This document shows positions 49,286-63,930 of a stretch of DNA of 64,000 bases, one piece after another. The notes under the pieces were generated by a model. It was not told the origin of the DNA, did not search any database, and saw only the letters and a list, made by a program, of their open reading frames with translations. The number at the start of each line of letters is the position of its first letter. The stretch's first letter is position 1. Made by a program: the position numbers and the translations under genes. The DNA is from an uncultured delta proteobacterium (GTDB lineage: Bacteria > Desulfobacterota > Zymogenia > Zymogenales > Zymogenaceae): positions 152,836 to 216,835 of the forward strand of contig CAWELC010000005.1 in assembly GCA_963809875.1 (NCBI GenBank), written 5' to 3'.

Positions 49286-49360
49286 GCGCCCGTAGCTCAG
49301 GGGATAGAGCACAGCGCTCCGGACGCTGGTGCGCAGGTTCGAGTCCTGCCGGGCGCACCA
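49286..49360 (+). tRNA. tRNA-Arg (anticodon CCG)
   Basis: Cloverleaf read by eye. Acceptor GCGCCCG/CGGGCGC, D-arm GCTC-AGGGGATA-GAGC, anticodon stem CAGCG/CGCTG with loop CTCCGGA (anticodon CCG), T-arm GCAGG-TTCGAGT-CCTGC, then A + CCA. Confidence 0.85.
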
Positions 49361-52240: not shown

Positions 52241-54514
52241 ATGAAAAAGGCAGTCGTCTTTCTCTGTATCCTGATAGCGTCTTATTCCTTAACGGCGTTT
52301 GCCCAGCCGGAGCAGAAGCTTCCCGATCTGCCGGGTGGAGCCGTCACCATCCCCTGGTCGGACTTCAAAGAGCTCATAAAGGGGTTGATGGCCCCACCCC
52401 CGGTTCCTCCGACCCCGCCGGAGCCGCCCGCCGACTATTCGGTGAGCTCGGCGTCCTACGTTGGGAGGATCGAGGGTGAGAGCGCCGTCTTTTCCGCTTC
52501 GTTTGCGGTGACGATCCTCGCCGAAAAGAAATGGGTCGAGGTACCGCTGGTCTCCGATGAGACGGCAGTCTCCAACGTCATGATGGACGGCGTCCCGGTC
52601 ACCCTCGCGGCGCGGGACGGCTCCTATGTTGTCTTCAGCGACAAGCCGGGAAGGCACATCGTAACGCTGAACTTCTACGTCACCGCGGATTCCGGGTCCG
52701 GAAAGAACGCGGTCGATATCCCTCTGCCGCAGGTCCCGGCGTCAACCCTCACGTTTACGGTTCCCAAGCCGGGGCTTGACATCCAAATCACGCCCGCCCA
52801 CTTCAAGAAGGTCACGCCTTCGGGAGGGGGTACCACACTCGAGGCGGTGCTGCCGATAACCGACCGGGCAGTCATCTCCTGGAGTCCTGCTGTGCGCGAG
52901 GAAGCCTCCGGAACGCTCAGGGTCCAGGCCCAGGTGAACACCATCATCTCGGTGGGAGAGGGGATCATGAAAGGGGTCACCACCGTTACGTATGACATCT
53001 CACACGGGACGCTCTCGAGCTTTTCGATCACGATGCCCGCAGACATCGAAATCATCGATGTCTCGGGGGACGCGGTCCGCGACTGGAAGGTCGTCCCGAA
53101 CGGCGGCACCTCGACGATCCTCGTTACCGCCGGGTTTCCCGCCTCCGGCACGACTAGCATCGTGCTCCTGTATGAGCGCAATATGGGCGGGACGACCGCC
53201 GATATCGAGGTGCCCCAGATCGAGGTGAACAACGTAACCCGGGAGATCGGCTATCTCGCGGTGACCGCGTCCACCAAGGTGGGGGTGGAGGAGATCTCGT
53301 CCAAGAACCTGGCGGGCCTGGACAGCACCGAACTGCCCGCCGAGATGGTCTCGGCATCGGAAAACCCGATCCTCTTTTCCTATAAGTACCTCAAGCACCC
53401 CTATGCCCTCAAGCTTGCGGTGGTGACCTACCAGGATATCCCAAGCCTCACCACGGTGGTCACGAAGGCCGACTTTTCATCCCTGCTCACGGTGCGGGGC
53501 GACCTGGTAACCCGGGCGGTCTTCGAGGTCAAGAATAACGTGAAGCAGTTCATGAGGCTTTCCCTGCCCAAGAAGTCGACCCTCTGGAGCGTCTACGTCT
53601 CCGATCGGCCGGTCAAGCCGTCGATGGACAAGGATGGCGCAATCCTCATCCCGCTGGACCGCTCCACCAGAACCGATAGCTCACTCACCTCGTTTACCGT
53701 CGAGCTCGTCTACATCACGGAGACCAAACCCCTCGGCGCGCTCTTCGGCCGCCGGGAATTTGTCGCCCCCGTTATAGACATCCAGACCGACGCCCAGGCG
53801 TGGACCATCTATCTCCCCGAGCGGTTCGCCTACCGGAGTGTTGGAAAAGACATGGAGAAGGCCGCGCCGACCCCCGTGGTAAGTGGGGGGGAGATGGAGA
53901 GCAACGCCCCGGCCACGGCTCCCACCGAGGAGATGACGGTGTCCGACGAGATGTATCGTGATAAGAAGGAGGCGCCTAAAACCCAGATCTACACCGAAAA
54001 GAATATCTACGCGGAGGGACTCTTGTCGATCGGAGGCGGCGCAGGGATGAAAGGTGTGCTGCCGGTGAAACTCGATATCCCCTTTTCCGGCCGTGCGATG
54101 GGTTTTACCAAGGCGATCGTCAGGCCCGGCGAGCTATCGACCGTTGCCATCAGGTATGAGGGCAGGGGGCTCTCGAGCCTGTTCCTTTATCTCGGGGTCG
54201 TCCTGTGTGCCCTCCTGTTTGTCTGCATTATTATCTCGGTACGACAGTCGGTTGGGGCGCGGCACATCGTCATCGAGCCAGGGCTTGCAGCGCTTTTCGT
54301 CTCGTCACTGATTGCGATCATCCTGATATCCGTTTTCCTGATTATGGACGTCGCTGCGATATGGTGGGGGCTTTTCATCGCCATTATCGTCGGCGGCTCC
54401 CTTTTCGTGAGGGACCTGATCGTAAGACTCAAGGAGTCGGCCGAGCGGTCGAAAGCCCAAGGCGTCAGGCAGGAGAAAGAGCGGACGCGGTCGGAAAAGA
54501 AGCATGAGAAATAA
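52241..54514 (+). CDS. Large secreted / C-terminally membrane-anchored protein of unknown function (paralog A)
   Basis: Start MKKAVVFLCILIASYSLTAFA has a signal peptide and a GGGAGG RBS. Motif TIPWSDFKEL, then a Pro-rich PPPVPPTPPEPP stretch. About 620 aa are predicted extracytoplasmic and beta-rich. The C-terminus has 3 hydrophobic helices and a KR-rich tail. Confidence 0.55.
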   Translation: MKKAVVFLCILIASYSLTAFAQPEQKLPDLPGGAVTIPWSDFKELIKGLMAPPPVPPTPPEPPADYSVSSASYVGRIEGESAVFSASFAVTILAEKKWVEVPLVSDETAVSNVMMDGVPVTLAARDGSYVVFSDKPGRHIVTLNFYVTADSGSGKNAVDIPLPQVPASTLTFTVPKPGLDIQITPAHFKKVTPSGGGTTLEAVLPITDRAVISWSPAVREEASGTLRVQAQVNTIISVGEGIMKGVTTVTYDISHGTLSSFSITMPADIEIIDVSGDAVRDWKVVPNGGTSTILVTAGFPASGTTSIVLLYERNMGGTTADIEVPQIEVNNVTREIGYLAVTASTKVGVEEISSKNLAGLDSTELPAEMVSASENPILFSYKYLKHPYALKLAVVTYQDIPSLTTVVTKADFSSLLTVRGDLVTRAVFEVKNNVKQFMRLSLPKKSTLWSVYVSDRPVKPSMDKDGAILIPLDRSTRTDSSLTSFTVELVYITETKPLGALFGRREFVAPVIDIQTDAQAWTIYLPERFAYRSVGKDMEKAAPTPVVSGGEMESNAPATAPTEEMTVSDEMYRDKKEAPKTQIYTEKNIYAEGLLSIGGGAGMKGVLPVKLDIPFSGRAMGFTKAIVRPGELSTVAIRYEGRGLSSLFLYLGVVLCALLFVCIIISVRQSVGARHIVIEPGLAALFVSSLIAIILISVFLIMDVAAIWWGLFIAIIVGGSLFVRDLIVRLKESAERSKAQGVRQEKERTRSEKKHEK

Positions 54515-56498
54515 GATTCTCGCGGCGCTCTGCGTCCTCTTCCTGCTGCCGTTGGCCGCCGGTCAGGCCCGCGCCGAGAAGGGGACACTGCCGCCGATGC
54601 CTGATACGAAGATCACCGTGCCCTGGGACGACTTCGTGAGGATGATGGAGGGGTTAGCGTCGCATCCGGCCCCTCCCGTTCCTCCCCCGCCGACCGACCT
54701 GGCCGTCGGGCGGGCGTCCTACACCATGCGCATTGTGCCGGGCCGGCTCGAGACCGCGGTGACCCTTGATGTGAGGAGTTACGGGGACGGCTGGCACGAG
54801 ATCTTCGTCGCCGGACGGGATACCCCTCTGATCTCCCTTACCGTCGACGGCATTGATGCGGTGACCCTGGTGAAAGACGACGGGGTATGGGCGGCCCTGC
54901 CGGGAGAAGGAAAAAGGACGATCCGGGCACTCCTCGTCACGGAGGCCCCCGATACCCCCGGACCCCACACGGTGGCGATCCCGGGTCCGACCGCGGCGGC
55001 CAGGGAAATCGACCTGAGCTACCCGCGCAATTACACGGACGTGGGGGTCGGCGGGGTGGTCACCGCGTCGATGCCGGGGAGGCTCTCGGCGGTCTTGGCG
55101 GGCGGCGGCAGCATCGAGGTCTCCTATACCGTGGCCGCCGTGGAGAAGATAGAGACCACCGGGAAGAAGGCCACGGGCCCTCCCGTGGTGACCGCGCAGC
55201 TCTTCACGGCCATGGATATCGAAGAAGAGGCGATCCTCCTTTCGGTCCGCATCGACTATGAGGTGAAGAACGGCCCCGTACGGTCGTTTCGGGTGAGTCT
55301 TCCCCAGGGCTTTGACCTCCTGGACGTAAAGGGCGACGGTATCGCCTCCTGGGAGACATCTCAGGACCGCACGGGGCTTACCGCTGCGATCGGTTACGAT
55401 GTTTCCGGCCCCTACTCCCTTTTTCTCTCCTTTGAGAAGGCAATGAGCGACGAGCTTGGCTCGATCGAATTTCCCCGGGTTGTCCCCGCGGGCGCGGAGC
55501 GGTCGACGGGATACGTGACGGTCGTCTCGGGAGGGGGCTTTGAAGTCACCGAGCTCAAGTCAAAGCTCCTCACGCCCCGGGATCCTACCGAGCTCCCGGA
55601 AGGGGTCTTTTCGCTCTCGGCGCTGCCGCCTATACTGGCCTACCGCTTCACCGACCCCCGTTACAGCCTCACGGTGGGGATTCGAAAAGGGGAGGCCCTG
55701 TCGGCGCTTTCGGGCTTTGCCGATTCGGCAAACTCCGTTATCCTCGTGACGGCGGACGGCAAGATGGTCGTCAGGACCAACTACTTCGTGCGAAACAGGA
55801 ACCTCCAGTTCCTCACGATCGTCCTGCCGCCGGAGTCCGTCCTCTGGTCGGCGACGACAAACGGCGTCCCGACAAAGCCGTCCACGGACAAGAAGGGAGT
55901 CGTCCTGGTCCCCCTTCCGATGGGCTCGGGCGGCGCCGACGGGCCGTCCGTGGTCTCCGTCGTTATATTTGTGCCGACACCCACTCTGGGGTGGGCCGGC
56001 CGGCTCTTTCTGCCGCTGCCGCGGCTTGAAATTCCGACCGGCCAGGTAATGGCGACCTTTTACCTCCCGGAGGGTATGAGCTATCTTTCCTTCGGCGGCG
56101 ACATGGAGCAGATCAAATATTTCACGGAGCTGCTCTCACCCGGCTCATCCGAAAGCTTCGTCGAGGAGAACCTGCGCCTGCGTAAATCCGTCTACGAGCG
56201 GCAGGAAGACCTTGAAAACGTCATAAACGAACAGCAGCAGATGCCCGATAAGGGGGGCGCGGGGCTGCCGCCGGCGCCCGAGGGATTCGACCTGCCGCTT
56301 TCGGGGAAGGTCTATCGGTTCGTGAAACTGATAACGATGGGCGAGGAGACGAGCGTAGTCGCCACCTACGTCGATCTGCGCCTCCTCGTCGCAGGCATCC
56401 TGCTCCTGCTGATCGTGGTTGGAGGAGGGGCTCTTCGATACAGGCGGAAGTTACGGAGTATAGTGACCGGCCGAACCGGGGACAGGGATATCCGCTAG
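54504..56498 (+). CDS. Large secreted / C-terminally membrane-anchored protein of unknown function (paralog B)
   Basis: Signal peptide MRNKILAALCVLFLLPLAAGQARA. It has the same ITVPWDDF plus PAPPVPPPP motif order and the same C-terminal TM anchor as paralog A. It overlaps A's stop by 11 nt. Confidence 0.55.
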   Translation: MRNKILAALCVLFLLPLAAGQARAEKGTLPPMPDTKITVPWDDFVRMMEGLASHPAPPVPPPPTDLAVGRASYTMRIVPGRLETAVTLDVRSYGDGWHEIFVAGRDTPLISLTVDGIDAVTLVKDDGVWAALPGEGKRTIRALLVTEAPDTPGPHTVAIPGPTAAAREIDLSYPRNYTDVGVGGVVTASMPGRLSAVLAGGGSIEVSYTVAAVEKIETTGKKATGPPVVTAQLFTAMDIEEEAILLSVRIDYEVKNGPVRSFRVSLPQGFDLLDVKGDGIASWETSQDRTGLTAAIGYDVSGPYSLFLSFEKAMSDELGSIEFPRVVPAGAERSTGYVTVVSGGGFEVTELKSKLLTPRDPTELPEGVFSLSALPPILAYRFTDPRYSLTVGIRKGEALSALSGFADSANSVILVTADGKMVVRTNYFVRNRNLQFLTIVLPPESVLWSATTNGVPTKPSTDKKGVVLVPLPMGSGGADGPSVVSVVIFVPTPTLGWAGRLFLPLPRLEIPTGQVMATFYLPEGMSYLSFGGDMEQIKYFTELLSPGSSESFVEENLRLRKSVYERQEDLENVINEQQQMPDKGGAGLPPAPEGFDLPLSGKVYRFVKLITMGEETSVVATYVDLRLLVAGILLLLIVVGGGALRYRRKLRSIVTGRTGDRDIR

Positions 56499-56656: not shown

Positions 56657-57412
56657 ATGGAGCTCACCATCCTCGGATCGGGAACCATCGTCGTGTCCCT
56701 GACGCGCTGGTCGCCCGCGTACCTCCTGAGGGCATGCGGCAAGACCATCCTTATCGACCTCGGGCCGGGCGCGCTGAGGCGTATGGTGGAGGCCGGCTCG
56801 GGCATCCTCGATATCGACGCGATCTGTCTTTCCCACTTTCATCCCGACCACGTCGCCGACTTCGTGCCGCTCGTTTTCGCCTCCAAATACGCCGTGGGAA
56901 GCTGCCGCGCCCGGGATCTGACCGTTATCGCTCCCCCGGGGTTCGGTGAATTTTACGCGGGTCTCATCGAGGTCTTCGGCGACTGGATCGTACCCGAGGC
57001 TTACCGGCTCGATATCCGGGAGGCCGACGGCTCGATTGTTGACCTCGGGGCCTGTTGTGTAACGACCGTTTCGGTCAACCACAGTCCCGAGAGTATCGCC
57101 TATCGTTTTGAGGGTGAAGGCGCTTCGCTCGTCTACTCGGGAGACACCGACTGGTCCGACGGCCTCGTCACCCTGGCGCGGGGGGCGGACCTCCTTCTCC
57201 TCGAGTGCTCGTTTCCGGACGACATGAAGGTGCCCGGCCATCTGACTCCCTCGGAGGCGGGAAGGCTCGCCCGTGATGCACGCGTGTCGCACCTGGTCCT
57301 GACGCACCTCTACCCCCCGGTGGAAAACGTGGATATCGTATCGATCGCGGGGGCCTCGTTTACGGGCAGGATCACCGTGGCCGAGGACCTGATGGTTATA
57401 CCGGTGGGCTAA
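56657..57412 (+). CDS. MBL-fold metallo-hydrolase (RNase Z/beta-lactamase superfamily)
   Basis: HFHPDH metal-binding motif and downstream His/Asp ligands. 251 aa. Confidence 0.75.
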   Translation: MELTILGSGTIVVSLTRWSPAYLLRACGKTILIDLGPGALRRMVEAGSGILDIDAICLSHFHPDHVADFVPLVFASKYAVGSCRARDLTVIAPPGFGEFYAGLIEVFGDWIVPEAYRLDIREADGSIVDLGACCVTTVSVNHSPESIAYRFEGEGASLVYSGDTDWSDGLVTLARGADLLLLECSFPDDMKVPGHLTPSEAGRLARDARVSHLVLTHLYPPVENVDIVSIAGASFTGRITVAEDLMVIPVG

Positions 57413-57550: not shown

Positions 57551-59134
57551 CTAATCCGCCTCGGGGGGGTCTTTGGGAGAATATTTTTCCACCAGCGCGT
57601 ACTTCGTCACCTTGCCGACGCTGTTACGGGGAAGCGTCGTCGTGAAGATGATCCGACCCGGCACCTCGTTCGGCGAGAGCCGCTCCCGACACCAGTCGAC
57701 CAATACCCGGTCGCTCGTGTCCTTCCTCGGATCCCTTACCACTACCGCCACCACCCGCTCTCCCGATGGGTAGTCGGGCAAACCGATCACCGCGGCGTCC
57801 ATAACGCCCTCATGGGACGTGAGCACCTCTTCAATGCCCGGAGCGAAGACCGTTCCTCCCGCCGTCACGATCATGTCTTCTCTCCTGCCCAGGAAATAGA
57901 GACACTCGTCTTCGTCCAGGCGGCCCCAGTCACCGGTGTAGAACCAGCCGTCACGATAGGCCGCCCTGGTCCTTTCCTCGTTCTTAAAATATCCCGGGGC
58001 GGCGGTGAGCGCCCGACAGATGATCTGGCCGATCTGACCGGTCGGTACGTCGCGGCCCTTCTCGTCGACGACGCGCAGCTCGGTCCCGAAGCAGCGGGTC
58101 CCCACGGAGGCGGGGTTGGCGCGCTTCTGATCCGGTCCCGCGTGCGCGATGATACCGGCCTCCTGCAGGGCGTAAAACTCGTAGATGTTGGGGCAGATTC
58201 GCTCCCTCACCTCGCGCTGCAGGGCGACGGGAAAGGGGCTGGCCGAAAACGCGATTCCTCTCAGCGACGAGAGATCGTATCGGTCCAGCTGCGGGATCTT
58301 CAGCAGGACCGATGCGACGATAGGAGTCCAGAACGTTATGGTGACGCGCTCCTCTTGGATGATCTTGAGGATTCCCGAGAGGTCGGTAACGTCAGGCTGA
58401 AACAGGACGTTTCGCGCACCGACCAGAAAGCCGGCGCCGTACCACCCCAGGCCCGCCCTGCCGTAGAGCGGAAAGACGGTCAGAATCACATCGGTGCCCG
58501 TGAGGTCGTGCATCGCCGTGAAAAGGCCCAGCGCATTGAGCCCGTTGCCGTGGGTAAGGGGGAAGACCTTCTGCACGCCGGTCGTGCGGGAGGTAGTGTC
58601 GATGCACTGGATGTCGTCGGAATCTACCTCAATAAAGGGAAGCGTGGCGGGACAGCCCCAAATCAATTCTTCATAGGGCAGGGCGGTTTCGGCCGTCTGT
58701 TTGCCGATACAGATGAAGGTCTCGATATCGGGCAGCGCCTTTCTGACCTCGGCCGCGGTCGGGGCGTAGATGTCCTCAAACAGAAAGAGCCGGGCACCGA
58801 CGAACCTGAGATATTCGACGATCTGATCGGGGCCGAACCCCCACTGGAGGGGCACGGCGACGGCTCCGATCTTAACGAGGGCGCCGTATATCTCTCCGGC
58901 CTCGGCCCGATTCCTGCACTGAAAGGCGCAGTGGTCGCCCTTTTGTATCCCCAGCGAGAGCAGGGCGTTGGCCAGACGATTCATCCGCTCGTTCACCTCG
59001 CGGAACGAGAAGCGCCGGCCCGTCATCGAGCAGAAGACGGCCTCACGATCCCGATAGCGGGCGGCCGCGGTCTTGGGGAGGTTTGACTGGGTTACCTGCG
59101 ACGCCCGAAAGAGTGATCGATCGATCCGGCTCAT
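57551..59134 (-). CDS. AMP-dependent synthetase/ligase (acyl-CoA synthetase / adenylate-forming enzyme)
   Basis: Adenylation-superfamily motifs (TSRTTGVQK..; YGRAG..; TGD.GR.DEDG; C-terminal lysine motif PRNSVGKV). Start taken at the ATG at 59134, which overlaps the peptidase stop (ATGA). Confidence 0.75.
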   Translation of the reverse strand: MSRIDRSLFRASQVTQSNLPKTAAARYRDREAVFCSMTGRRFSFREVNERMNRLANALLSLGIQKGDHCAFQCRNRAEAGEIYGALVKIGAVAVPLQWGFGPDQIVEYLRFVGARLFLFEDIYAPTAAEVRKALPDIETFICIGKQTAETALPYEELIWGCPATLPFIEVDSDDIQCIDTTSRTTGVQKVFPLTHGNGLNALGLFTAMHDLTGTDVILTVFPLYGRAGLGWYGAGFLVGARNVLFQPDVTDLSGILKIIQEERVTITFWTPIVASVLLKIPQLDRYDLSSLRGIAFSASPFPVALQREVRERICPNIYEFYALQEAGIIAHAGPDQKRANPASVGTRCFGTELRVVDEKGRDVPTGQIGQIICRALTAAPGYFKNEERTRAAYRDGWFYTGDWGRLDEDECLYFLGRREDMIVTAGGTVFAPGIEEVLTSHEGVMDAAVIGLPDYPSGERVVAVVVRDPRKDTSDRVLVDWCRERLSPNEVPGRIIFTTTLPRNSVGKVTKYALVEKYSPKDPPEAD

Positions 59135-59577
59135 GACCTCATAGTCTCCTGACCGAACAATGAGAGAGAACGTGCGCGTATCCACCGCGCGGCCTTCCCC
59201 AGCCTTCCCTTGACGATTCCTGCGGTCAGGTTTCTCCGCGAAAGGGCGGCCGTCACGCCCCCAAAGCGGGGCCGGACGAGACGGCGGTCAGAACGGGAAA
59301 CCATGATGACCCTGAGGATGCCCCCGGGAGGGACGGCGGTGGGTGGGTCCGGGTAGGTGAGATTGTCTCCCTTGGTGACGATGACTGGCGGACTCACGCT
59401 CCGGTCGACGCCGATTATCCTGTGGACGACCAGCTCCTTCTTTCGGGGGACGCAGACGATATCGCCGATTGCGCAGTCGGCGGGCCGGACGGTATCAAGG
59501 ATCAGGGTATCGCCCGGGCGGAGTGCCGGGTACATGCTGTATCCCTGAAAAGCGATGCGTCGGTAGTCCATCGTCAT
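59131..59577 (-). CDS. S26-family signal-peptidase-I-like peptidase (short, no obvious TM anchor)
   Basis: Start trimmed to MTMDYRR. The Ser box is GYSMYPAL. The Lys/Arg box is GDIVCVPRKKELVVHRIIGV, matching the SPase I/TraF arrangement. Confidence 0.55.
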   Translation of the reverse strand: MTMDYRRIAFQGYSMYPALRPGDTLILDTVRPADCAIGDIVCVPRKKELVVHRIIGVDRSVSPPVIVTKGDNLTYPDPPTAVPPGGILRVIMVSRSDRRLVRPRFGGVTAALSRRNLTAGIVKGRLGKAARWIRARSLSLFGQETMRS

Positions 59578-59614: not shown

Positions 59615-59869
59615 TTAGGGCGCCTTCCCGTAGTTGCAGCGCACCGCGGTGGCGCCGTCGCGGCAGTTTTGCGGCGTGGCCGAAGGGCCCTGTGCGCACG
59701 CAACCGTCGCCTGGGCTCCGCCGGAGCACTGGCTTGTCGCCTGGGCGCCCGTGGTGCACTGTCCGGTGGCCTGTCCTCCCGTAAGGCATTTCGACTGGCC
59801 CACCGCCTGGGTGTAGTCCACCTGCAGATCGACTATTTTCGGGGGCGCATACGGCTTTTTTGTTTTCAT
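59615..59869 (-). CDS. Candidate RiPP precursor peptide A (84 aa): leader MKTKKPYAPPKIVDLQVDYTQAVG + 6-Cys core with decapeptide repeats
   Basis: ATG at 59869. The core is QSKCLTGGQATGQCTTGAQATSQCSGGAQATVACAQGPSATPQNCRDGATAVRCNYGKAP. Cys spacing is 10/10/10/11/9. Each Cys is preceded by an Ala-Thr dipeptide 4-5 residues upstream. Confidence 0.6.
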   Translation of the reverse strand: MKTKKPYAPPKIVDLQVDYTQAVGQSKCLTGGQATGQCTTGAQATSQCSGGAQATVACAQGPSATPQNCRDGATAVRCNYGKAP

Positions 59870-59981
59870 CAGGAAATCACCAAAAAATTTATTACGGACG
59901 TAAAGGTATAAAAGACAATTGTCACATGATCCGCGGTCGCCGTCCCGGTCCTGTGTGAGCGGGACACCGACGCATCCTCCA

Positions 59982-60206
59982 TTATCCGGATAGTATTGAG
60001 TGGGGTGCGGCGCCATGAATGCATGTCGACGACGTCGCCTTATGACCCATGCTGCATTGATTGTTCGCGCTGTTTCCGCGTGAGCACCGGGCCGCCGCGC
60101 CCTGGCCGGTCGCGCACCGCGACGCGCCCACCGCCTGGGTATAGTCGACCTGCAAATCGATGATCTGAGGCGGCTCATACGGTTTTGTGGGTTTCTTATC
60201 CTTCAT
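59982..60206 (-). CDS. Candidate RiPP precursor peptide B (74 aa): near-identical leader, divergent 4-Cys core
   Basis: ATG at 60206 with a GGGAGA RBS. The leader is MKDKKPTKPYEPPQIIDLQVDYTQAVG. The core is ASRCATGQGAAARCSRGNSANNQCSMGHKATSSTCIHGAAPHSILSG (Cys spacing 10/10/11). Confidence 0.55.
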   Translation of the reverse strand: MKDKKPTKPYEPPQIIDLQVDYTQAVGASRCATGQGAAARCSRGNSANNQCSMGHKATSSTCIHGAAPHSILSG

Positions 60207-61157
60207 GAGGCATCTCCCTGAAGAAAGGGGTGGGCTTGAAATCCCTGGTAAATACCAGCGTCCACGAGGGTTGGTTTTGACACAGCTGCCCTGCGATGCC
60301 GAACGCCCTGAGCGCCGCGTTGCGGCACATGTACCGAAAGAAATGGATGTGATTGGATAACAACATCGCCATGGCCCGGCCCGGCGACAGATCGGCGATC
60401 CGGTCTTCGTTGCCCTTTTCGAGGAAGAGGATGCGCCTGAGAGGAACCGGGCCCGCGACTTCCGCCCCGGGGCGATCTGTGAAAAAGGGGTCGGGAAGAG
60501 AGAGAACGTCCCGCCGGTTTGCGAACACCAGGACCCGTCGTCGGAAAGCACCGCCCCCGGATCCGCCGCGGCTATTGTGCTCTTACCTGCGCCCGAGCTT
60601 CCGACGCAGAGATAGCCCGCGCCGTCCAGGACCAGCGACGCGGCGTGGAGCATCAGTGCGCCGAAATCCGGCGCGCAGACCGCCAGCAGTCCCTGCAGCA
60701 CAGGCGTCAGCGGTGACTCACCGTCCGAATCTTCCTCGACCCTCACGAGGGCCTCCGCCTGTCGGAGCCGGTGATCCACCACCACGAGAAAACAGGGGTG
60801 TGGAATGACCGAGACATCCCCCGAATCGAGATCAGCCAGAAGCGGCAGAGACGCCCCCCCGTCCTTAGCCTGCCGTTTCCTTCCCTGGTTTCCGAACCAT
60901 ATCCTGTTAAAAGGGAACCTCTGTTCGATCGTTTGCGCGATGCGACGGGTGTGTGCAAGGGCTTCAGGTGACAGTATCTCATCCCAGGACTCCCCAACGG
61001 CCCGCCTGATCGACAGATCAATGCCGACTCGATCCCGCCGATGCGTTAAGTGGGACGTATGACCTTTCAACCCACGGCCGGCGTCATTCATCAGCTTACC
61101 CGCAGGATCGTTGACGAAGGTGACCTGTACCGATACCCCTCCGACCGTGACGATCAT
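60196..61157 (-). CDS. P-loop protein resembling HPr-kinase C-terminal domain-like kinases, apparent frameshift near 60525
   Basis: Walker A VGSSGAGKST. The C-terminal part continues in ORF 60196..60528 (VFANRRDVLSLPDPFF...) in another frame. ATGA overlap with the upstream rSAM gene, and its stop overlaps the precursor B start. Confidence 0.45.
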
Positions 61158-62242
61158 CTTTCCACCATCCTGCCGGGCGGGAAAAGACCCTTTTCATAGG
61201 CTTCCTCGCATACCCAGTGCGGGGCGCTCAGGCTTCCCGACAATACGTACGCGTCAGCCCGACATGAACCAAGACAGATTCCTGCCATGAAGCATCGGCC
61301 GCATATTCCCTCCATTCGACGGGGTACAATCTCTCGAAGTCGCCCGAGAACGTGACTGCTTTTCCACACCTGGGCCAGGTCGTCGGTGCGGATGTTGCCC
61401 ATAGTAAGCGACCGCTCTTCCCGTCCGATACCGCAGATCGAGATATCACCGCCGGCCAGAATGCCGATAATGTTCAGTATATAGCACTGGGCGTTTCTTC
61501 CGTCAAAGAGGTGCGAGATCGGTTTGAGGGCCGAAGGGACGGTAAAGAATGTATCTATGCCGTAGCTCGCGGCCAGCTCCCCTTCCACCCACGCACAGAG
61601 GGCCAGCAGCTCTTCAACCGGCAGGGTCTGCCCCTGATCCTTCAAGCTCCCGCCCCTCCCAACGGGGGTGACGGGGTTGATCTTCACGGAACGCGCCCCG
61701 AGCCGTTGGGCCATCTCGACCAATCCCTCGATGTCCGCGGCGTTGTCACGAACGAGGCTCATGATCACCTGAACGGCGATACCCTCTGCCGCCAGAAACT
61801 CAACGCCAGCGGCCGCCCTATTCAGGGCCCCATCTACCCCCCGGAAGCTATCATGGAACGACGCCCGGTGACTGTCAATGCTCACGCTTACGGAACGGAT
61901 GCCATGGTCTTTCAGGAAGGCGGCGGCCTTCCGGTCGATCAGTGTCCCGTTGGTCTCGATCGATGCAGAAAGACCGCTGACGTCCAGCAGCCTGACAATG
62001 TCGAAAACGTCTTCGTTCAGAAACGGCTCCCCCCCGGTGAGCTTGACGCGGGAAAGTCCCAGGGGCCGGGCCGCATCGATGATTTTTTTGACGTCTGCCG
62101 TCGTCAGACGATCACGTACGGCTTCCTGTTGGGGAGTGAAGCTGGGGGATATCCAACAGTGGGCGCAGCGGAGATTACATCCTCCCGAAAGGTACAGGTA
62201 GGCGTGGATCAGAGGATATGCGGGCGTCCTATCGGCTCGCAT
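61154..62242 (-). CDS. Radical SAM / SPASM-domain peptide-modifying enzyme 1
   Basis: Start MRADR at 62242 (GAGGAGGA RBS). CNLRCAHCW (CxxxCxxC) radical SAM motif. C-terminal Cys-rich auxiliary-cluster region (CGIG..., CGRCFMAGICLGSC). Confidence 0.8.
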   Translation of the reverse strand: MRADRTPAYPLIHAYLYLSGGCNLRCAHCWISPSFTPQQEAVRDRLTTADVKKIIDAARPLGLSRVKLTGGEPFLNEDVFDIVRLLDVSGLSASIETNGTLIDRKAAAFLKDHGIRSVSVSIDSHRASFHDSFRGVDGALNRAAAGVEFLAAEGIAVQVIMSLVRDNAADIEGLVEMAQRLGARSVKINPVTPVGRGGSLKDQGQTLPVEELLALCAWVEGELAASYGIDTFFTVPSALKPISHLFDGRNAQCYILNIIGILAGGDISICGIGREERSLTMGNIRTDDLAQVWKSSHVLGRLREIVPRRMEGICGRCFMAGICLGSCRADAYVLSGSLSAPHWVCEEAYEKGLFPPGRMVER

Positions 62243-63428
62243 ATGAATCCTCCTCTTCACGGAGCCTGAGGCAACAGGACGGGTCCCGGGCGAGCGTCGT
62301 GCCGGAGGCGGCCAGCGCCGACGCGGCGCACCCCCCCGTGCAATAGGGGGCATACCGGCAGTCGGTGCAGGTAGGAAGGCTCGCGACCGGGGTAACGAAA
62401 CGCGCCCGAAATTCCTGAAACAGAGGCGATTTCCTCCATATCTCGTCAAGGCCGGTATCCAGGACGTTGCCTGCCACAAGCTCGGTGAGGCGGTCGCACG
62501 GAGTCGCAAACCCATCGGGTCGGATCGCGCATTCCGTGCGCAGCGCGCCGCATCCCGAAAGGCAGTTTATGTCCGCGTCGGCGGGGTTCTCTTTTTCGGC
62601 ACATACCGAGCGAATAGTCGCAAAGATGTCTTCTATTTCGAGGAAGGTGCCGGAGATCGTGGGATTGGCCTCTTTCAGTTCCCTGAGAGACGCCGTGACC
62701 TCGCGTCGTTCTTCGGCGGAGAGACCGAGCTCGCCCCGGTTATCATGGCCCCGACCGAGCGTGATGAGCTCATTGAATTTCACGCCCCGAATGCCGAGCT
62801 CCCCGGCCAGTCTCACCACCTCTTCCAGCCGCCGAAAGTTCAGGCGAGTCACCGTGCAGTAGGCCGAGACCCGCCCGATCTGCCGGACCAGATGTCCCAG
62901 TCCCTCCTCCATCGCCCGGAATGCCCCGGGTCCCCGCAGGGCGTCGTGGACTTGTTCCGTGCCCCCGTCCAGGCTCACCATGACATCGGAGAGCTTTTCC
63001 CCGTATCTTCGGAGACGCCCGGCCGCCCCCGCGTCGATGAGCACGGCGTTCGTGTTAAGAGAGAAGCGGATCGGCTTTGAGAAAAGATGGTCGAGGATGG
63101 TAAAGATATCCTGCCGGGCGAACGGCTCTCCCCCGCTGATCTTGACCCGAAATACTTTAAGATCGGCGATATGGTCGATGAACGAAAGCCATTGGGAGGT
63201 GGTGAGGTCCGGCCCGTAGGAGAGGCCGTCTCCGTAGACGGCACAGTGGCGGCAGGCCAGGTTGCAGCGGGAAGTGATGGAGATAAAGAGTGACAGCGGC
63301 GCCCGCGGTATCCTCGGGGGGACGGGGTATATCTCTCCGGCTGCGGTGGCTGCTTTCTGCCTGCTCACGATAGTCTCTCCCTGTTGTTGGATCCGGGCAG
63401 AAGTCCCCGTCCGGAAGGCCTTACGCAA
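62229..63428 (-). CDS. Radical SAM / SPASM-domain peptide-modifying enzyme 2
   Basis: CNLACRHC radical SAM motif. C-terminal SPASM-like Cys cluster (CLSGCGALRTEC..PCD..CTDCRYAPYCTGGC). It overlaps both neighbours, which suggests translational coupling. Confidence 0.8.
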   Translation of the reverse strand: MRKAFRTGTSARIQQQGETIVSRQKAATAAGEIYPVPPRIPRAPLSLFISITSRCNLACRHCAVYGDGLSYGPDLTTSQWLSFIDHIADLKVFRVKISGGEPFARQDIFTILDHLFSKPIRFSLNTNAVLIDAGAAGRLRRYGEKLSDVMVSLDGGTEQVHDALRGPGAFRAMEEGLGHLVRQIGRVSAYCTVTRLNFRRLEEVVRLAGELGIRGVKFNELITLGRGHDNRGELGLSAEERREVTASLRELKEANPTISGTFLEIEDIFATIRSVCAEKENPADADINCLSGCGALRTECAIRPDGFATPCDRLTELVAGNVLDTGLDEIWRKSPLFQEFRARFVTPVASLPTCTDCRYAPYCTGGCAASALAASGTTLARDPSCCLRLREEEDSYASR

Positions 63429-63930
63429 CGATCAGCCCGCGATCCACCAGCTCCTTGACGAAGGACTCCACGTCCCGGCCGACCTGCTGTGCGTCAACAT
63501 CCGAAAAATGCGCAGCCACCGCGTGGATGATATCGGCAAGGCTCTTTTTCCCGTCGATCTGTCGCATCACCATGAGCCCGGTCTCGTTGATCGCCGAAAG
63601 CTTGTCGCCAACGGGGTCGAATATAAAGGCGCCGTCGTCCTCCTCGCGGATGACGGTCTCCCTCTTGATTTTGGGCGTGAACGAACGATCAGGCGCCATG
63701 GTGAAGACCCCCTCTCTTATGAGCTTGCGACAAATCCTCTTCACGTCCCCGGCTACGGCCCTGTCTTTCTCACCGAATTCCCGGGCAATCCCCCGCACAA
63801 CCGCGTTGAGGTTTCGTGTGCCGTCGGTAAGTCGAATGACCGCCGCGGCGGTATGGTTGAGGAGATAGACGTTCCGGTCGCCGGTGTCAAAAAGGACAAG
63901 CTCGTCCTGGTCGAATTCGGATGCGACCAT
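63421..63930 (-). CDS. PqqD-family peptide chaperone (RiPP recognition element), tandem double domain
   Basis: 169 aa. Two consecutive ~80-aa units each match the PqqD pattern (..YLLNHTAAAVIRLTDG.RNLNAVV.. and ..SAINETGLMVMRQIDGKKSLADII..). Confidence 0.65.
   Translation of the reverse strand: MVASEFDQDELVLFDTGDRNVYLLNHTAAAVIRLTDGTRNLNAVVRGIAREFGEKDRAVAGDVKRICRKLIREGVFTMAPDRSFTPKIKRETVIREEDDGAFIFDPVGDKLSAINETGLMVMRQIDGKKSLADIIHAVAAHFSDVDAQQVGRDVESFVKELVDRGLIVA

Follow-up and report, generated by a model that had tools for sequence, protein, structure and literature searches.

Radical S-adenosylmethionine (radical-SAM) enzymes are encoded beside a small Cys-rich peptide, precursor A, in the 64-kb stretch of DNA from an uncultured delta proteobacterium that was analyzed here (the window). 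Between precursor A and a kinase-like gene, positions 59982-60206 of the minus strand hold a second short open reading frame (ORF), precursor B, and the question raised by this locus is whether B is a working gene, a decaying copy of A, or the end of a longer reading frame. The original prediction described it as a genuine second precursor with a conserved leader and a degenerate core, and the first half of that description holds. The stretch is a real, conserved and unannotated second precursor gene, and the cluster around it encodes radical-SAM peptide modification in a bacterium that resembles sulfate reducers. Judging from sequence comparisons, B appears to be a functional second substrate of a SynChlorMet-like (Scm) radical-SAM cassette for peptides that are made ribosomally and modified post-translationally (RiPPs), at a probability of roughly 0.78. 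It would represent an old B-type paralogous lineage, the design of which is four CxxGxxA/P units ending in C-x-H-G-x-A(P).

Anatomy of the precursor B gene

The precursor B ORF encodes a peptide of 74 aa (MKDKKPTKPYEPPQIIDLQVDYTQAVGASRCATGQGAAARCSRGNSANNQCSMGHKATSSTCIHGAAPHSILSG) closed by a TAA stop, and a Shine-Dalgarno-like site (GGGAGA) is located approximately 7 nt 5′ of its ATG. The leader closely resembles that of precursor A (N-terminal sequence MKTKKPYAPPKIVDLQVDYTQAVGQSKC...), with 20 of 24 aligned residues identical (83%) at the protein level and 78% identity at the DNA level, in agreement with the approximately 80% originally estimated. Third codon positions within the leader are only 58% identical, and the synonymous distance (dS) is about 1.9, i.e., saturated, with a dN/dS of 0.05. 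The similarity of the two leaders is therefore kept by selection and not by recent gene conversion. Identity between the two cores is lower, at about 49% over aligned residues, and the product of B is probably distinct from that of A.

The four Cys residues of B (positions 31, 41, 51, and 62) each begin a unit, namely C31ATGQGA, C41SRGNSA, C51SMGHKA, and C62IHGAAP, and are followed by a 12-residue tail past the last Cys. The predicted four-Cys core and PHSILSG terminus, in which Ser is the penultimate residue, are thus correct, but the Cys spacing is 10, 10, and 11 and not uniformly 10 as had been stated. When the window was translated in six frames and searched with a profile hidden Markov model (HMM) of the precursor family described below, B was recovered with an E-value of 1.5e-32 and A with 9e-43. 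No third copy was found in the 64-kb window, the next-best fragment having an E-value of 0.36.

The gap between the two precursor genes is exactly the 112 nt that had been predicted. Its 3′ half is AT-rich and holds the weak ribosome-binding site of precursor A itself (GGTGA). In a DNA alignment of the window with the related locus L001, both coding regions are conserved, with changes mainly at third positions, whereas the spacer is not. The predicted RNA fold of the spacer is not significant (z = -0.70), a scan for consensus promoters and terminators found none, and there was no match in Rfam. A regulatory RNA or terminator was rejected on these grounds together with the lack of conservation in L001, and a promoter candidate picked by eye (TTGTCT-N18-TAATAA) fails the criteria of the promoter scan. 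The spacer looks like ordinary intergenic DNA from the tandem duplication, supplying precursor A with a ribosome-binding site of its own.

The precursor family and its repeat unit

The family HMM was searched against 1.84 billion representative proteins, and 95 hits were counted at E < 1e-3. With the exception of a few long, repetitive proteins from eukaryotes, the hits were peptides of 50-170 aa that share the leader and the repeats. The family, with about 90 peptide clusters, is defined by a K-x-Y-E-P-P-x-I-x-x-L leader, followed by C-x2-G-x2-A/P repeats with a period of 10-11 residues and a short tail. Across 590 units, Cys occupies position 0 in 100% and Gly position +3 in 91%, while Gly at +3 combined with Ala or Pro at +6 is seen in 70%; the spacing from Cys to Cys is 10 in 268 cases and 11 in 119. 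Pro is found at +6 of the last unit in 37/95, the tail past the last Cys is mostly 6-12 residues long, and the residues at -3 and -1 of the putative cleavage site are mostly Ala/Gly and Gly/Ala, respectively. Four is the commonest number of units per peptide (23 of the 91 peptides counted). Precursor B falls squarely within this definition, as all four of its Cys start units that have Gly at +3 and, in order, Ala, Ala, Ala, and Pro at +6. Its core follows the commonest design in the family and is not degenerate.

The only known family that is matched repeatedly by these peptides is ScmA (TIGR04252, a model of 49 positions with a cut-off of 35 bits), to which 38 of 88 family peptides align at E ≤ 0.1, the best with an E-value of 4.3e-9. 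It is also the only family matched by either precursor of the window, with 13.9 bits for B (E = 0.049, residues 10-57 on profile positions 1-47) and 13.7 bits for A, both below the cut-off.

The B-type lineage: age, selection, and alternatives

A word-index homology search returned four relatives. B-type orthologues occur in three other metagenomic sources, at loci L001 (76% identity), L012 (72%), and L016 (68%), with all four Cys in register; P0001 (76%) ends in CVHGSAPFFL and P0002 (72%) in CVHGAAPFSL. Locus L001, which encodes P0001, has the same layout as the window, with ScmC, B, a spacer of 119 nt, and A. The B-type gene of L016 (5956-6150; 64 aa, four Cys, ...CGTGNSAVARCQTGRNANSQCSMGQRAGVSCTHGPAG, ending in PAG) was left uncalled by the source gene caller, where approximately 350 nt stand empty between ScmC and a called precursor of 86 aa; a six-Cys precursor of another subtype is found 175 nt past the B-type gene. 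The B-type peptides form a clade in 187 of 200 neighbor-joining bootstraps, and their partners differ: the window and L001 have an A-type partner, and that of L016 is of an L003/L014-like type.

Within the B-type cores, which end in a C-x-H-G unit, the Cys, Gly (+3), and Ala/Pro (+6) positions are invariant. By the Nei-Gojobori method, B-type leaders give dN/dS values of 0.04-0.17 and B-type cores values of 0.13-0.28, compared with 0.09-0.40 for A-type cores, although dS near saturation makes all of these figures approximate. The diversifying selection on the core that the original prediction had raised is not seen, as the B-type values indicate purifying selection similar to that on A.

Could B instead be a decaying duplicate of A, drifting after the loss of two Cys? 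It has four Cys where A has six, the cores share only the identity given above, and B is missing from close relatives such as L011. Yet four independent B-type genes have retained the four-Cys register and the unit motifs under purifying selection, four units are the family's commonest arrangement, and a truly decayed precursor, P0023 of locus L017, looks quite different. We regard decay as very improbable, and B is, on sequence grounds, an old and maintained paralogue, neither degenerate nor diversifying. L017 (5960-6163 and 6163-6761) holds a decayed version of the cassette, in which P0023 is the sole precursor and has a single Cys and no recognizable repeat units after the leader; the acyl-CoA ligase gene is also gone, while the radical-SAM, ScmC, and S26 peptidase genes are kept.

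The stronger constraint on the B-type leader than on its core, together with the presence of B in only 3 of about 17 loci, would suit a peptide that is never matured and instead competes for the PqqD chaperone by means of its leader, as a decoy, a regulator, or a peptide of the immunity type. Such a role is quite unlikely, as a decoy would not need invariant Cys, Gly (+3), and Ala/Pro (+6) positions, and A-type cores share the same pattern of leader-over-core constraint.

Locus L008, from a Candidatus Zymogenus metagenome-assembled genome (MAG), has two precursors (1068-1490 and 1606-1863) that belong to another subtype. The first of these is split, with the leader ORF stopping past ...QAVGQ at 1190 and the CxxG-repeat core in another frame (1332-1490), which reflects either a frameshift or a sequencing error. 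L008 also has two paralogues of the acyl-CoA ligase gene.

The ScmC-like gene overlapping precursor B

The public gene call at this position is a 391-aa fusion ORF (P0099, 59982-61157) that swallows B, and a third explanation would take the stretch as the C-terminal end of a kinase-precursor fusion protein. The frame of B is indeed open from 61157 to 59982, and P0099 is the only product recorded for the locus. However, the approximately 88 codons at 60474-60207 bear no relation to any ScmC when read in the frame of B, whereas in the +1 frame this region matches ScmC C-termini (61-63% identity) as far as a stop at 60196. In tblastn searches with intact orthologues, the N-terminal 230 residues align in one frame to ...TPFSQI at about 60474 and the C-terminal 98 residues in the other, from about 60495 to 60202. 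The ScmC-like gene is 962 nt long (3n+2), so one base is missing, and the shift lies between 60474 and 60457 within a GCCCCGGGGCGG run (CCCCGGGG run), consistent with an indel of 1 nt. ScmC orthologues are intact (308-336 aa), and all 18 that were compared (308-330 aa) end just within the start of the precursor gene, in the other frame. A fusion protein is therefore hardly credible as the origin of B.

Once corrected, the ScmC-like frame ends in ...REMPHEG-TAA, with the TAA at 60196-60198, and has an 11-nt overlap with the start of B (ATGAAGGATAA), which is read in another frame. B is therefore far from being contained in the true kinase frame, a possibility that the original prediction had flagged as fatal along with disabling mutations in related strains, where B is intact. 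Relatives show the same kind of overlap between ScmC and the first precursor, of about 23 nt. The overlap with the ScmC-like stop suggests translational coupling for B, which sits in the ancestral precursor position, with the six-unit A downstream under its own ribosome-binding site. The intact downstream frame argues against an old decay of the ScmC-like gene. Because the frameshifted kinase ORF reads through B, the exact B peptide is missing from a public collection of 15 billion proteins; precursor A is present there as a called gene.

The Pfam family PF27840 (ScmC) matches, in precomputed annotation, all orthologues as well as P0099. When an AlphaFold2 model of the intact orthologue P0100 (pLDDT 81.8) was used for a fold search of the PDB, the sole matches were to ATP-PEPCK (E = 6e-7) and to HprK/P (E = 1e-4 to 1e-2), with low TM-scores of 0.2-0.4, and at the sequence level matches in the PDB were marginal (PEPCK, E = 0.014; HprK, E = 0.22). 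Across 18 ScmC homologues, G188, S190, G191, G193, K194, and T196 of the P-loop (GxSGAGKST) are invariant and S208, D209, D210, and G211 (SDDG) nearly so. ScmC thus shows the features of a PEPCK-like P-loop kinase, i.e., GxSGxGKS[TE], an [AS]DD motif, and a predicted fold of the PEPCK/HprK C-terminal domain. Since the HprK sequence matches are not significant, the resemblance is one of superfamily only, and the earlier label of "HprK-like" seems fair at that level, without implying membership of HprK.

The original prediction further linked this kinase, as a speculation, to the Ser near the C-terminus of B, by analogy with some lasso peptides; paeninodin and pseudomycoidin are lasso peptides that HprK-like kinases phosphorylate. 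The PEPCK/HprK fold, the invariant P-loop, and the SDDG motif are compatible with this proposal, and NTP_transf_5 genes of relatives next to PqqD complete a lasso-like trio of PqqD, kinase, and nucleotidyltransferase. The targeted residue, on the other hand, is not conserved. The ILSG tail is confined to the window, its orthologues ending in PFFL, PFSL, or PAG and the A-types in GKAP or GKSP, and ScmC is present whatever the C-terminus. Only 16/91 family peptides end in Ser, and no Ser or Thr position that could serve as a kinase target is conserved across the family (35% have Ser/Thr at -2 relative to the first Cys). The cluster also has neither a lasso cyclase nor a lasso protease. That the C-terminal Ser of B is phosphorylated is accordingly unlikely, while some ATP-dependent tailoring by ScmC is likely.

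The ScmC gene of L011 (3313-4287) is 40% identical to that of the window (60196-61157) in its N-terminal part and 70% in its C-terminal part; precursor A (90%) and the ligase (86%) are both closer than the ScmC N-terminus. This mosaic similarity points to recombination within the cassette, close to the site of the precursors.

Organization of the cassette and related loci

The features of the locus are listed in Table 1. Two SPASM-domain radical-SAM genes and the frameshifted kinase-like gene are present upstream of B, as had been described.

Table 1. Features of the precursor locus, with positions in the window
Feature	Position	Strand	Description
Tandem PqqD-domain protein, ScmD-like	63421..63930	-	putative leader-binding RiPP recognition element (RRE) chaperone; two Pfam PqqD stretches (E = 1e-25)
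ScmE-like radical SAM/SPASM enzyme	62229..63428	-	TIGR04250 203.5 bits (cut-off 400); Pfam Radical_SAM and SPASM
ScmF-like radical SAM/SPASM enzyme	61154..62242	-	362 aa; TIGR04251 346.6 bits (cut-off 400); Pfam Radical_SAM and SPASM
ScmC-like P-loop kinase-fold gene	60196..61157	-	962 nt (3n+2), 1-nt frameshift
Precursor B	59982..60206	-	leader, residues 1-27 (KPYEPPQIIDLQVDYTQAVG); four CxxGxxA/P units; tail HSILSG
B-A spacer	59870..59981	-	112 nt; intergenic, not conserved
Precursor A	59615..59869	-	84 aa; six CxxGxxA/P units (6 Cys); ends in CNYGKAP
Soluble S26-type protease (archaeal/ER-like signal peptidase I)	59131..59571	-	146 aa; putative leader peptidase
AMP-forming acyl-CoA ligase-like enzyme	57551..59134	-	Pfam AMP-binding and AMP-binding_C
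MBL-fold hydrolase (RNase Z/Apyc1-like)	56657..57412	+	opposite strand to the cassette; conserved neighbor in relatives

The mechanically called ScmF-like ORF spans 61154-62515 on the minus strand (453 aa), but its homologues have 362 aa, and translation likely begins at an ATG at 62242, with 14 nt of overlap with the ScmE-like stop. For the acyl-CoA ligase, the probable start is at 59134, where an ATGA is shared with the stop of the S26 peptidase. From PqqD to the ligase, the genes look translationally coupled, the B-A spacer excepted. The S26 protease has no N-terminal membrane anchor and scores 51.8 bits with TIGR02228 (cut-off 51.85), in addition to a weak match to the NiSOD maturation protease. 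Its translation contains a Ser box (GYSMYP, SMxP), a His box (HRIIG), and GDN, and the gene directly follows the precursor(s) in all relatives.

The related loci belong to MAGs of uncultured delta-proteobacteria and Thermodesulfobacteriota or come from metagenomes. The order of two PqqD domains, ScmE-like, ScmF-like, ScmC, precursor(s), S26 peptidase, and acyl-CoA ligase is kept in more than 15 of them. The ligase is syntenic in L003-L005, L008, L010, L011, L014, L016, L018, and L020, and the MBL-fold gene in L003, L005, L010, L011, L014, L016, L017, and L020. Past the MBL-fold gene, the window has an ORF of 664 aa (54504-56498, plus strand), and a gene of about 660-680 aa stands beside the MBL gene in L014, L016, L017, and probably L018, the correspondence being one of size and position only. 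An NTP_transf_5 (PF14907) gene lies directly upstream of PqqD in L004 (4889-6151), L016, L017, L018, and L020; the window ends about 70 nt past the PqqD start, and the corresponding position would fall beyond 64000. The only Rfam match in the window is a tRNA gene (49286-49357, plus strand).

The original prediction reasoned that two radical-SAM enzymes might mean two products. A single precursor is found in L002-L005, L007, L010, L011, L014, and L018-L020, and L006, L009, and L013 also show one precursor, on contigs that end at or just past it. Both radical-SAM genes are nevertheless present in the single-precursor loci with the upstream region on the contig (L002, L004, L005, L006, L011, L014, and L018-L020), and those reaching further upstream carry the tandem PqqD gene as well. 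The number of radical-SAM enzymes thus does not track that of precursors, and a one-to-one pairing of the two PqqD domains or the two radical-SAM enzymes with the two precursors was rejected, as single-precursor loci have all of these.

Relationship to known systems

The closest resemblance is to the SynChlorMet cassette of Haft, which likewise comprises a PqqD protein, two SPASM radical-SAM enzymes, ScmC, and a small precursor with Cys repeats. For every component of the cluster, the best NCBIfam match is the corresponding Scm model (ScmA TIGR04252, ScmC TIGR04249 [Pfam PF27840], ScmD TIGR04248, ScmE TIGR04250, and ScmF TIGR04251), but all scores are below the cut-off, including ScmF (346.6/400), ScmE (203.5/400), the tandem PqqD protein against ScmD (58.9/100), and ScmA (13.9/35). 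Against the ScmC model (cut-off 125), the window ORF scores 17.2 and the intact orthologue P0100 29.8 bits. As these top matches are all sub-threshold, the cluster is best described as a sub-threshold relative of the SynChlorMet cassette. The PqqD protein of the window cassette differs in being a tandem, and possible further differences are the soluble S26 peptidase, the acyl-CoA ligase, and the NTP_transf_5 enzyme of relatives. No publications on the SynChlorMet cassette or on this peptide family were found in the literature searched.

Sactipeptides and ranthipeptides (e.g., subtilosin/AlbA, ruminococcin C, freyrasin/PapB, and SCIFF/CteB) also combine a leader with a Cys-rich and sometimes repetitive core, and have SPASM radical-SAM maturases with a PqqD-type RRE. 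In these groups, several precursor paralogues per enzyme set are common. The thioether, made by the SPASM radical-SAM enzyme, connects a Cys sulfur to the C-alpha of the acceptor in sactipeptides and to C-beta or C-gamma in ranthipeptides. To our knowledge, the CxxGxxA/P unit with its period of 10-11 residues corresponds to no described sactipeptide or ranthipeptide motif. The maturase models match only far below cut-off, namely StsB (110-123/625 bits), AlbA (83.6/850), and PapB (69.7/340). Two radical-SAM enzymes have also been described for the ruminococcin C cluster (PMC8188230).

The clusters of phosphorylated lasso peptides (paeninodin, PadeK; pseudomycoidin, PsmK/PsmN) share an HprK-like P-loop kinase, a PqqD-type RRE, and an NTP_transf_5-type enzyme, and in the latter PsmK phosphorylates the C-terminal Ser and PsmN adds a hexose (PMC9266682). 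Unlike these, the window cluster lacks a conserved C-terminal Ser, and the fold of ScmC is closer to ATP-PEPCK than to HprK, with HprK sequence models missing ScmC. Neither an Asn-synthetase-like lasso cyclase nor a B-protease was found among the nine cluster genes; only lasso-type PqqD models matched, below or near their cut-offs.

Possible maturation and significance

Several points weigh against B as a functional substrate of this cassette. Most relatives have a single precursor, and B is evolutionarily dispensable. L011 is without B although its A is 90% identical to that of the window (dS 0.32), and B has thus been gained or lost among close relatives. The dN/dS estimates are approximate, as noted above. 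If the ScmC frameshift is real and does not stem from sequencing, the cluster may be inactive in this organism, and B would then be made only as the C-terminal end of the 391-aa fusion. The cross-link chemistry is proposed purely by analogy, and both radical-SAM enzymes score as well or better with PqqE, mycofactocin, and heme-synthase models as with sactipeptide or ranthipeptide maturases, all below cut-off.

What the analysis shows is the anatomy of the genes, their conservation, and their assignment to families and folds, and all chemical steps that follow for B as a second substrate are inferred. The tandem PqqD protein would bind the shared leader (K-P-Y-E-P-P-x-I-I-D-L-Q-V-D-Y-T-Q-A-V-G) and may hand either core to both SPASM radical-SAM enzymes. 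By analogy, these would most likely add one Cys-derived cross-link (thioether) per unit, i.e., four in B and six in A. The soluble S26-type peptidase may then cut off the leader after A-V-G, with small residues at -3 and -1, and the kinase of PEPCK/HprK fold, the acyl-CoA ligase, and, in relatives, the NTP_transf_5 enzyme could carry out further tailoring. In this manner, one enzyme set would yield two related products, B and A.

A second precursor paralogue is ordinary in RiPP clusters, and the family itself, which is large, defined by sequence, and uncharacterized in its chemistry, is of more interest than the existence of B. Both B and its L016 orthologue went uncalled, which indicates that small RiPP precursors beside frameshift-prone genes are being lost from annotation. 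The KxYEPPxIxxL leader followed by CxxGxxA/P repeats provides a concrete and testable substrate definition for an Scm-like cassette, and the natural pair of four-unit and six-unit precursors with a common leader would be handy for learning how each radical-SAM enzyme acts per repeat. More tentatively, one enzyme set may process two long-diverged precursor lineages into four-ring (B) and six-ring (A) products of a chemically undescribed RiPP class, with one modification per CxxGxxA/P unit, that is widespread in anaerobic Thermodesulfobacteriota and in which the cross-link, as well as phospho-, nucleotidyl-, or acyl-tailoring, may differ from sactipeptides and ranthipeptides.

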